Source of the DNA: a virus | Taxonomy: Duplodnaviria; Heunggongvirae; Uroviricota; Caudoviricetes | DNA: 43,124 bases | Reading direction: 5' to 3' (one strand) | Virus record (IMG/VR): IMGVR_UViG_2531839664_000026 | Span: 1 to 43,124 of that record | Shown: piece after piece, positions 12,001 through 15,000 of the stretch | Position numbering within the stretch: the stretch's first letter is position 1 | Layout of the letters: each line of letters opens with the position of its first letter | Made by a program: the position numbers

Positions 12001-15000
12001 AAACGGTCGTGGATCACCTCCCGGGCAGGCACCGTCACCGACTCTGTGATCCCACAGTTCCGGTCCGGCGTGATGCGGTAGAACACGTCGCCGTCATCCG
12101 CCACCAGAGGTTCAACCCGGTTCCAGTCCAGAATACGCAGTTCTTTGATCTGCCCCCGGGGGTTGCGGATTTTCAGCACCACCGTATTGCCGTGACGCAA
12201 TTTGGAATTCAGCCACAGTTCAAAAAACTGGATGCGATTCTGCTGCGCATTAGGACGACGACAGAGACGGGCAGTATCTCCCTGCCGCTTTTCCCGACGT
12301 ATTCCCTGTACATCAGTCTGCATCAGGCGAAGCCGCATTTTGGCAATATCCTGGGATATCAGCGAAATGCATGAAAACACCGCGTGAAAGGACAAAACGG
12401 TTTCCGGATCGGCTTTCACACCCTGCTGCCAGGCACCGGCAAAAGGCTCAGCCACCGCCTGAAACAGGGACCGCCAGCCCACTTCTCTTACGTCACGTCC
12501 TGATTTCTGGTTTTTTCGGGTTCGCCGCAAAAGGTTCCACATTCGCCATGCTCCGCATCACGTTTCTTTTTCTGACCTGCCGGACGTCGCGCTGTGATGT
12601 ACTCCGCCTTCCCCAGGCGAACCAGCACCTCCGCACACGGCTGTGCCACATCACGGATATCCCCGGCCCGGGCATCATGCGTGCCCTGCAGATACTGGAT
12701 TTTTGCCATCTGTTACTGCGGGAAGCTCGCGCCTCCCGCCCTCCTCATCAGACTCAGCCACCGGACGCAGTTCCGTAGTTCACACCGGTGATCACCGCCA
12801 CTGCCGCGGTACGGCGACGACGCCAGTTGATCCAGCGCTCCGCACGGATGGCCACGCTGCCGGTCTGAAACATGGAGACCAGTTCCACCGGTGACGGTGT
12901 GCTGCTGTCGCTGGTCGGTTCAGACTGCATCTCCAGTGATGCCTCGCGGGACATATCCACTGCCACGCCGCCGTCATCCGCCAGATAAATATCCGGGGCA
13001 TTCACCAGCACCAGCTGGTCACCCACGTACTGGGAGACAATCACCGGCAGCCCCTGGAAGGAGCCACCCAGCAGGGTCATGTCCGGGTATTCCTTCTGAC
13101 CCAGCGCATTTTTACGCATGGACAGTGCCAGGGCATTGGTGCTGGACATCAGCCAGACCGCACCGGTGGGCTGCAGGTTTGCTGCCACAAACTGTCCAAA
13201 CGCAGCCTCTGCATCCGCATCCGGGTTACCGGTTGATGCCGTGCCCTTCACATCATGGGTGATGGACGCCGGGGAGACATCTGCCACTGCGGCTTTTTTC
13301 GGGTCCACAAAGTCTGTATCCAGACGCGCCACCACCGCTTCCGCCAGCGCATTACGGACCAGTGCATCAGCAGCCGGACTGGAAAAACGGATCAATTCTT
13401 CCGTCAGTACCGCAATGGCCGACACCTTCGCATGACTGAAGGTGATGGATTCAAAATCAAACTTCGTCAGGGGTTTTGCCTTACCCTCACCCACCCAGCC
13501 GGCAGCACCGCCGGACACCTGGGCGTGCACACGGATATTGAATGGCACCTGACGAAGTGCAGGGATCCCGCCCTGACCAAATCGCCCGATAATGGTCTGC
13601 GGACGCAGGTAATCAATAAAGTCCTGTGCGTATTCCTGATATTCAGACAGGCTGCCTGCCCACTGCGGATCCGTGGTGGTCCCCGCGCCCACTGCCGATT
13701 TCAGGACATGATGCAGACGACTGTCATCCGGATACTGACGACGGGCCACTTCCAGGGCTTCAGATCGGACGCCTTTAGCCGCAGCCAGCGATTTGGCAAA
13801 GCGGGCGAAGCCAATCCCCTTATCCAGTTTCTGCTCCACACGGATCACCGGCGCAGAAGCCACCGCGGCCACATTCCCGTTACCGGCCTGTTTCACCGGC
13901 TGCGCCGTGGCGGCCTTACCGGCTTCCAGTTCACGCAGGCGCTTCAGGTGCGCATCCACCTGACGGATTTCCGCTGCGGTGTTGTCGTAGTGCTCTTCCT
14001 CCTCCACATCCAGCGTGCGCCCTTCCTCTGCGGCTTTGGTCATGACCTCCTCAAGGGAGGCTGCCAGCGCTGCACGCTTGTTTTCAAAACTTTTAATCTG
14101 TTCGCCAATATTCATTATGGTCTTTTCCTTATGAAAAACGGTTGTTGACTGTGCCGCAGCGCCGGCAGAAGATGCGATTTTCACCACCGGTTTCCGGTTG
14201 CCGGACGCGGCAGAAAACGGGCGGTCGTAAGATTTAATGGTCCGGATGGTGCATTCCGCATTCGCGGGCACGGTGACGGCAGACACCTCCATCAGTTCCC
14301 AGCGCAGAAAATGCAGTCCGCCTCCGTCCAGAAAGGTGTATTCATGGGGACGGAAGCCCACGGACAGCCCCCTGACCAGCCCGGTCTTAATGGCCGCCCA
14401 GACCTCATCCAGCCGGGCAGCCAGTTGCGACGGCATATCCGGTACGGGCTTCACCAGTGTTGCCGTGATTTCCAGCCCTTCGCTGACCCGGCGTACCGTA
14501 CACTGCCCCACCGGGCGGGAATGGTCATGCTGCCAGAGAAACGGGATCGCACTGCCAAACTCCGCGCCCTCCGGCTCCAGGATGTCACCATCCCGATCCG
14601 GAGAAGGCGTTGACGCAATCCCGGTGATCACCCGTTCATCCTCACTGAAGGATTTCACCGTCAGCAGGGAACAGGCCCGTTTAAGAGTCACATCAGCCTC
14701 CTGAAAATAAAAAAACCGCCGGAGCGGTTCGTGATGGTTACAGTGTGAACAGGGTTATATGAAAAAAACCGCATATTCTTTCTTTTTCGGTTCCGGGTTA
14801 AGGGACATCAGGGAGACCGCATTGAACAGCGCCATCAGCGGGTCAATTTTTCCCCGTCCACTGGCCTGTTTGGTGATAAGAATGGCGTTACCTTTAGGCT
14901 CCACCCGGGCATTGCCGACACACCAGGCCATCAGGGGCTGGTCACCATGCACCAGCACCCCTTCAGCCAGTTTGCGCTCGGTGGTTTTAATGGCCCCGCC

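Follow-up and report, generated by a model that had tools for sequence, protein, structure and literature searches.

In the assembly of phages and herpesviruses, it is a standing question by what route the maturation protease enters the procapsid and how much of it does so. HK97 and T5 encode protease and capsid protein in two genes, and the free protease is loaded via its own C-terminal tail. Besides such a targeting tail on a free protease, as in HK97, the known solution is to tether the protease to the scaffold by means of nested genes, with an internal start in a protease/scaffold gene, as in lambda C/Nu3, HSV-1 (herpes simplex virus 1) UL26/UL26.5, and the archaeal Haloferax virus HFTV1 gp17/gp17.5 (bioRxiv 10.64898/2026.09.13.751334; PMC11565193). 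Fusions of a protease to the capsid protein have also been annotated in Arthrobacter phage clusters AM/AU/AN/AW and in Rhodococcus phage RRH1 (PMC5513430), and are carried by thaumarchaeal proviruses (PMC6563490). In this report, we focus on a gene with that architecture—a prohead protease followed by a major capsid protein in one open reading frame (ORF)—in a tailed virus of the Caudoviricetes, IMG/VR record IMGVR_UViG_2531839664_000026, of which positions 1 to 43,124 were analyzed (this whole stretch of 43,124 nucleotides is hereafter called the window). We estimate at roughly 0.7 the probability that this gene is a nested in-frame pair, encoding a long protease-capsid form and, from an internal start, a short capsid form.

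The gene is a 645-codon ORF on the minus strand, running from a GTG at 14691 to a stop at 12756-12754 with no stop between its protease and capsid parts; the initial annotation, which had placed both in one continuous frame, is borne out by Pfam matches for both domains. The product as a whole falls in phrog_617 "major head protein" (8e-262, PHROGs) and is labeled "phage major capsid protein" in RefSeq (WP_000173032.1), and GenBank phage records label the gene "putative major head protein/prohead protease." In the N-terminal part, Pfam PF04586 (Peptidase_S78) matches aa 48-152 (profile positions 51-155 of 165) with 34.7 bits, the cutoff being 21, and the equivalog model TIGR01543 gives 46.4 bits, under its cutoff of 59. 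Judged by these profiles, the protease is a member of the S78 family and not a close equivalog of HK97 gp4; it is 29.9% identical to the phage T5 pb11 protease. Among 159 aligned homologues, His55 is present in 153/153 of those ungapped at that position, Ser110 in 152/153, and Glu135 in 151/152, and Ser137 is near-invariant. His55 and Ser110, which we take to be the counterparts of HK97 His65 and Ser114, are the predicted catalytic His and Ser. An AlphaFold2 model of the 645-aa protein, built from a 50-sequence alignment (mean predicted local distance difference test score, or pLDDT, 76.7), shows a beta-rich protease domain at aa 16-144, with strands spanning aa 4-139 at pLDDT 75-88. The initial annotation had allowed that a profile search might reveal something other than a protease here; the Pfam match together with the invariant His55 and Ser110 argues for one.

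The protease is followed by a linker modeled at pLDDT <50 (aa 145-191), which is hypervariable in length and sequence across the family, alignment columns 157-192 being mostly gaps. Within it, two short motifs are conserved in the family, AAxG (columns 161-164) and PG(A/V)SG (columns 175-179), which may serve in self-cleavage or in binding the capsid; the window has the diverged forms SAASG and SSAGAA. Beyond the linker, long helices at aa 195-222 and 229-262, beginning two residues past M193, and shorter helices up to about aa 331 form the delta region, the presumed boundary of which is flanked by disordered segments at aa 265-285 and 334-347. On the model, the delta region probably ends at about aa 335, which would put the maturation cleavage site, tentatively, near K335/S336. 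The capsid part is matched by TIGR01554 (major_cap_HK97, NCBIfam) at aa 204-584, with 78.1 bits against a cutoff of 27.5, and by Pfam PF05065 (Phage_capsid) at aa 386-635, with 53.3 bits against a cutoff of 24.2, and Foldseek gives a probability of 1.0 to the capsid proteins of Bxb1, Muddy, HK97, T5, and D3 over about 285 aligned columns. A sequence search of the PDB returned a weak match to the Bxb1 capsid only, and no HK97 or protease chain. Apart from the protease-capsid gene, a single ORF of 73 aa separates TerL from the portal gene, and no scaffold gene was found in this interval.

The start of the short form would be M193. As initially annotated, 192 codons precede the capsid start, M193 being the ATG at 14115-14113, and an internal Shine-Dalgarno (SD) motif stands before it, AAGGAA at 14130-14125 or UAAGGA at 14131-14126, with a spacer of 9-10 nt; the sequence running up to the ATG is TTCATAAGGAAAAGACCATA, in which UAAGGA has a 10-nt spacer. 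In-frame ATGs make up 10/645 codons of the ORF and 11% of its codon positions show anti-SD pairing at least equal to that of the M193 site (-6.2 kcal/mol), from which the chance expectation for an SD-ATG lying no more than about 10 codons from the domain boundary can be estimated at about 2%; the window on its own is suggestive only. The 63 nt around ATG 14115 fold with -6.6 kcal/mol, against an ORF median of -19.2, which is among the weakest 1.5% of positions. Another candidate start, M217 (ATG 14043), is preceded by GAGGAGG but was rejected: the spacer is too short, the motif is paired in a hairpin of -21.4 kcal/mol, and the Met is an ordinary conserved residue inside a helix.

Across the family, the start codon, the SD motif, and an open mRNA are, by the measures given below, conserved in fused loci with the same strength as where unfused relatives begin their capsid genes. 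A scan of viral contigs gave only loci 96-100% identical, which are uninformative, and a scan of genome contigs with alignment was used instead, providing a DNA-level test set of 60 fused and 21 unfused loci, window included, in which the relatives are 35-59% identical. At the protein level, Met occupies the M193 position in 135/153 representatives of fused 50%-identity clusters, with Val in most others, and in the 60 fused loci the codon at the site is ATG in 54, GTG in two, TTG in two, and none of these in two. Anti-SD pairing, computed over positions -18 to -3 relative to the start, has a median of -6.4 kcal/mol at the site versus -2.4 at other codon positions of the same fused ORFs, and 27/59 fused sites rank among the top 5% when set against the ORF in which they lie (binomial p = 7e-20). 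The comparison with 838 other in-frame ATGs gives the same picture (median -6.4 versus -2.5 kcal/mol, Mann-Whitney p = 1.6e-23), and unfused relatives give a median of -5.9 kcal/mol at their true capsid starts. The family base profile at -15 to -9 reads AAGGAGG and is at least 93% purine. Since the motif occurs in all three codon registers (30/18/6), encoding KEG, QEA, QGA, and other peptides (KE in the window), the constraint is on nucleotides, not on amino acids. Local mRNA folding is likewise relaxed, with a median of -11.9 versus -20.0 kcal/mol and 35/58 sites in the weakest 5% (p = 8e-31), and where capsid genes truly start in unfused relatives, the median is -10.4 kcal/mol. This pattern of start codon, SD, and structure persists among lineages with <50% protein identity. 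The initial annotation had offered a natural fusion with internal initiation as one of two explanations, and its support now comes from these three features in relatives 35-59% identical.

We propose that the nested pair would work as follows. Initiation at GTG 14691 would give the 69.1-kDa long form, consisting of S78 protease, 48-residue flexible linker, delta domain, and capsid, while independent initiation at the internal SD-ATG 14115 would give the 48.3-kDa short form, an ordinary delta-domain capsid precursor. The two would co-polymerize via their common capsid part, and because the delta domains of HK97-type capsids face the procapsid interior, each long subunit would place one protease inside the shell, tethering thereby replacing the separate capsid-targeting tail of free HK97-type proteases. 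After assembly, the protease would cut off itself, the linker, and the delta domains. A consensus scan found no promoter-like site within the ORF, so both forms would come from a single transcript, and how strongly each of the two sites on this one late mRNA initiates, relative to the other, would determine the protease dose per head. A fixed protease:capsid ratio, which the initial annotation had suggested, would be a reasonable consequence. Across the family, the two starts have about equal SD strength (-6.2 versus -6.4 kcal/mol), and the sequence therefore says nothing about the value of that ratio.

The fusion is widespread. Homologues 73-78% identical and 644-648 aa long are found throughout the Enterobacterales, those from Salmonella, Enterobacter, Klebsiella, Serratia, and Pantoea being 73-77% identical. 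When 1.84 billion cluster representatives were searched, 12,587 matched at E <= 0.001 and 1189 at E <= 1e-30. Of the best 150 (38-57% identity), about 140 are fused over their full length, at about 590-700 aa; five unfused capsid representatives (456-478 aa) start at query residues 193-196. The genome scan found 80 loci (35-59% identity) in Alpha-, Beta-, and Gammaproteobacteria, Actinomycetales, Phycisphaerae, Lentisphaerae, Clostridia, and others, so that with the window the layout is fused in 60 loci and unfused in 21. In the unfused loci, the capsid gene starts at exactly the Met equivalent to M193, and the protease stop either overlaps the capsid start as ATGA/GTGA (seven loci) or lies upstream of it by 5-21 nt (eight loci), 39 nt (one locus), or 56-109 nt (five loci). 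In a neighbor-joining tree of the capsid part with Fitch parsimony (78 taxa), the root is fused, several deep clades are wholly fused, and at least 11 state changes are required. On this phylogeny, fusion is the dominant and old architecture of a large family, and the loss of a stop codon, the other explanation initially offered, can be dismissed as a recent accident. Homologues with a stop at this position, which the initial annotation had named as evidence against its proposal, do exist, but because 21/81 loci have a stop or frame change there, they point to two states that interconvert in evolution and not to a recent defect. In three unfused loci (L117, L136, and L147), the protease stop is the UAA of the capsid UAAGGA motif itself, which in the window is out of frame; a UAAGGA with its UAA in or out of frame is, at the level of sequence, a one-step route between fused and separate layouts. 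Joins of a further kind were seen in proteins P0001 (1079 aa), P0123 (1094 aa), and P0132 (1091 aa), in which about 440 residues of large terminase are joined to the protease-capsid ORF; they come from one near-identical E. coli contig and two distant cluster representatives and may be either true triple fusions or artefacts of read-through.

Many RefSeq genomes, including O26, O121, and other chromosomes of Shiga toxin (Stx)-producing E. coli, contain the 1938-nt gene at 100% identity, and near-identical copies are found in 1255/5426 complete E. coli genomes, with at most seven copies per genome. The gene is also 96-99% identical in 93 phage records of long-tailed Stx1a, Stx2c, and Stx2a phages. 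The window belongs to this long-tailed Stx phage group (Pankowvirus 2851, WGPS6, and phi330; YYZ-2008, JLK-2012, BP-4795, and 1717), in which the same gene, 96-99% identical, sits in the same head module. One of these, phi330, forms plaques; it is a siphovirus with a 55-nm head, its genome was determined by Sanger sequencing, and its copy of the gene is 98.9% identical (PMC12502783). Compared with the phage records, the portal, TerL, TerS, and HNH genes carry homopolymer frameshifts in the window. Over 9.5 kb, no substitution separates the window from the chromosome of E. coli O121 RM8352; the two differ only in homopolymer length, by indels that add up to nine bases, located at 17242, 17231, and 17207 (HNH), 16530, 16514, and 16489 (TerS), and 16149 (TerL). 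As a result of these indels, TerL is split (16415-16110 plus 16113-14755), TerS is truncated, and HNH is altered, a pattern that looks more like long-read error than real decay. Inside the protease-capsid gene, there is no indel relative to this reference. Since the gene is identical in many genomes and free of indels, the fusion is neither an assembly artefact nor a private mutation.

Several points weigh against a nested pair. The loci are mutually related, and the p values given above therefore overstate independence and are upper bounds on significance. In two fused loci, L115 and L130, the site lacks a start codon, and in a few the SD is weak. In the window, the internal SD is moderate, UAAGGA with a 10-nt spacer standing at the 11th percentile of its own purine-rich ORF, and the upstream start has a stronger one (AGGAGG at 5 nt), albeit with GTG, so the window gives no sign of an excess of the short form. 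We found no proteomic, ribosome-profiling, or N-terminal sequencing data for two polypeptides in the literature on this phage group; the phi330 paper and its supplement have peptide maps for short-tailed phages only and none for the phi330 capsid (PMC12502783). Lineages have gone from one state to the other, fused or unfused, 11 times or more, which shows the covalent link to be dispensable, and the long form may therefore not be the only or an essential route for protease loading. Finally, by a rough estimate, volume does not exclude a shell made of long forms only.

This last point bears on the alternative of a single-product polyprotein, in which only the 69-kDa protein is made, the protease:capsid ratio is 1:1, the protease removes itself together with the delta domain after assembly, and the internal Met and purines serve at the protein level or are a leftover. 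We consider this unlikely. It would agree with a continuous ORF whose first start has a strong SD, with the conserved AAxG and PGxSG linker motifs as possible self-cleavage sites, and, on the same rough estimate, with 415 extra 21-kDa domains in a T=7 shell, which are not physically excluded; fused genes of actinobacteriophages have, moreover, been annotated as single fusion proteins (PMC5513430). However, a leftover would not retain a start codon in 58/60 fused loci and Met in 135/153 representatives amid a freely varying linker, nor would it switch to GTG or TTG in 4/6 loci in which the Met codon is lost, and a role at the protein level is difficult to reconcile with an SD kept in all three registers, where it encodes different amino acids, and with mRNA structure specifically relaxed at the site. 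Less probable still is that initiation does take place at the internal site but the long form arises as a by-product, the protease being free after self-release and the tethering having no role in loading. The dispensability of the link, seen in at least 11 fused/unfused switches, would suit this explanation, as would the fact that unfused proteases keep the whole linker, with a stop 0-21 nt from the capsid start, since that linker could hold a capsid-binding peptide. Yet the predominance of the fused state (60/81 loci and about 140 of the best 150 representatives), kept over long divergence, would be unexpected if fusion were neutral or costly.

The explanation to which we give the least credence, as very improbable, is that the gene is degenerate, either through a recent loss of a stop or through a sequencing or assembly error in a decaying prophage, the functional state being two genes. 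The homopolymer frameshifts of the window in HNH, TerS, TerL, and portal invite this suspicion, as do the separate genes in 21/81 related loci and the three unfused loci that stop at the UAA of a UAAGGA that is out of frame in the window. The ORF is, however, identical or nearly so in 1255 genomes and in infectious phages determined by different sequencing methods, including Sanger, and it has no indel against the reference; Enterobacterales homologues 73-77% identical keep the length of 644-648 aa, and the fused state, placed at the root, fills deep clades. A nested in-frame pair thus remains our preferred reading for the window. Its extension to the whole family—in which the capsid would be made from a conserved internal start, and a minority of shell subunits would be born with a protease and deliver it into the procapsid—is more tentative, and we put it at somewhat under even odds. 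This wider claim covers the Proteobacteria, Actinobacteria, Planctomycetes, and other phyla, and 1189 50%-identity clusters at E <= 1e-30. If it holds, the nested-gene principle of lambda and the herpesviruses would reach capsids that contain their own scaffold, and a start that is always live would let lineages toggle among fused, overlapping (ATGA), and separated layouts.

The coordinates of the locus are collected in Table 1.

Table 1. The protease-capsid gene of the window, its parts, and neighboring features
Feature	Position	Strand	Basis or remark
Long ORF, 645 aa, 69.1 kDa: prohead protease, linker, delta domain, and HK97-fold major capsid protein	12754..14691	-	
SD AGGAGG, 5 nt before the GTG of the long form	14697..14702	-	Anti-SD duplex -10.3 kcal/mol
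Protease domain, aa 1-144, S78/HK97 family	14260..14691	-	Pfam, AlphaFold, invariant residues
Linker, aa 145-192, 48 aa, predicted disordered	14116..14259	-	pLDDT, alignment gaps
Internal SD UAAGGA, within the linker coding sequence	14126..14131	-	-6.2 kcal/mol, 10 nt before ATG 14115
Internal start codon ATG (M193), putative start of the short form, 453 aa, 48.3 kDa	14113..14115	-	Comparative
Delta (scaffolding) region, aa 193 to about 335	13687..14115	-	AlphaFold helices; predicted end point
HK97-fold capsid body, aa about 336-645	12757..13686	-	Foldseek, Pfam PF05065
73-aa ORF between capsid and portal genes	12488..12709	-	phrog_829; RefSeq hypothetical protein WP_001063025.1
Portal gene	11178..12542	-	Pfam Phage_portal 2.3e-79; downstream of the capsid gene
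Terminator-like hairpin GAACCGCTCCGGCGGTTT followed by a T-run	14713..14730	-	Consensus scan; between the TerL stop and the protease-capsid gene

The genes on the minus strand of the window follow the order HNH, TerS, TerL, protease-capsid, 73-aa ORF, and portal. The initial annotation had described the order capsid then portal as unusual; the order itself is correct, but it is not unusual, the portal being downstream in 74/80 loci of the family and TerL upstream in 52/80, wherever they were detected. Judged by these loci, the order TerL, protease-capsid, portal is a family trait. The conserved 73-aa ORF, which overlaps the portal start, may encode a decoration or head-completion protein. The GC hairpin of the terminator-like site falls in the 63-nt gap between TerL and the protease-capsid gene, within the late operon; one such site was found in the region versus a mean of 1.8 in shuffles, and on its own it is not significant. 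The portal is split from its C-terminal half at 11198, where a G5 run replaces the G6 of phage 2851; there, the portal is a single 859-aa ORF, and RefSeq flags the O121 copy as "frameshifted." The split may reflect true inactivation, slippage, or an error. The C-terminal half is the ORF at 9958-11181, which matches phrog_2271 portal positions 455-859, contains 162-nt (54-aa) tandem repeats of the form PVPxDGxxxxPD...VxxAVxxIP, and ends in a weak carbohydrate-binding-like segment. Such a repeat-bearing C-terminal extension is unusual for a portal protein.

The capsid body also differs from that of most relatives at position 611. The family consensus has Lys406 (138/159), Asn611 (132/159), and Glu618 (137/159), with an HK97-like spacing from Asn to Glu, and we take K169, N356, and E363 to be the triad of the HK97 isopeptide "chainmail." The window and 10 other sequences carry Gly at 611 (codon at about 12859-12861), and the capsid of this Stx phage may lack a chainmail cross-link predicted for its relatives.

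The fusion of protease and capsid is in itself ordinary and already catalogued. As in the fusions of Arthrobacter phages, RRH1, thaumarchaeal proviruses, NF045541, and phrog_4523, the protease precedes the major capsid protein in one ORF. The window protein is nevertheless no member of NF045541 (54 bits versus a cutoff of 525, over aa 48-287 only), the architecture being the same and the family different, and a search of a phage collection with the actinobacterial member L119 gave no actinophage relatives of the window family. For none of these fusions is an internal start mentioned in the papers that could be searched, and the full-text literature searched, two key reviews being outside its coverage, gave no description of a protease-capsid fusion with a conserved internal start. 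Three other leads proved irrelevant: the work on escape from CBASS, an antiphage defense based on cyclic oligonucleotide signaling, deals with protease-scaffold fusions in T1-like phages, TP901-1 "MCP2" is unrelated to the NCBIfam model name, and the Sf101 paper concerns the integrase of phage 2851 only. Given the literature searched, the conserved nested capsid start thus appears to be the new part, although an earlier mention is possible. If correct, it would change the annotation of thousands of entries, including Stx phages, in which one 645-aa "major capsid protein" is listed and two products are probable, and it would account for the alternation of the two layouts, fused and unfused, among close relatives. 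Phages that can be grown, such as phi330 and 2851, allow a direct test of the claim.

Like HK97 gp4/gp5 and T5 pb11/pb8, the window phage combines a PF04586 protease with an HK97-fold capsid protein carrying a delta domain and has no separate scaffolding gene, and in all three the protease is encoded directly upstream of the capsid. The gene order is different, portal, protease, capsid in HK97 and TerL, protease-capsid, portal in the window, and the capsid is very distant from that of HK97 in sequence, the likeness being at the level of the fold only. Like lambda, HSV-1, and HFTV1, the window phage has an N-terminal maturation protease and an in-frame internal start that would give the C-terminal assembly protein alone; the two products have been shown experimentally in those viruses, whereas in the window phage they are predicted. 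The protease families also differ, herpesvirus assemblin as against S78 in the window phage, and the lambda C protease is S49-like. In lambda, HSV-1, and HFTV1, the shared C-terminal part is a separate scaffolding protein, whereas in the window phage this part is the capsid protein itself, which has its scaffold built in as the delta domain, and the long form would therefore be a subunit of the shell. If true, this would amount to a third and very common solution to protease entry, in which the protease is tethered to a subset of capsid subunits and its dose is set by two ribosome-binding sites.

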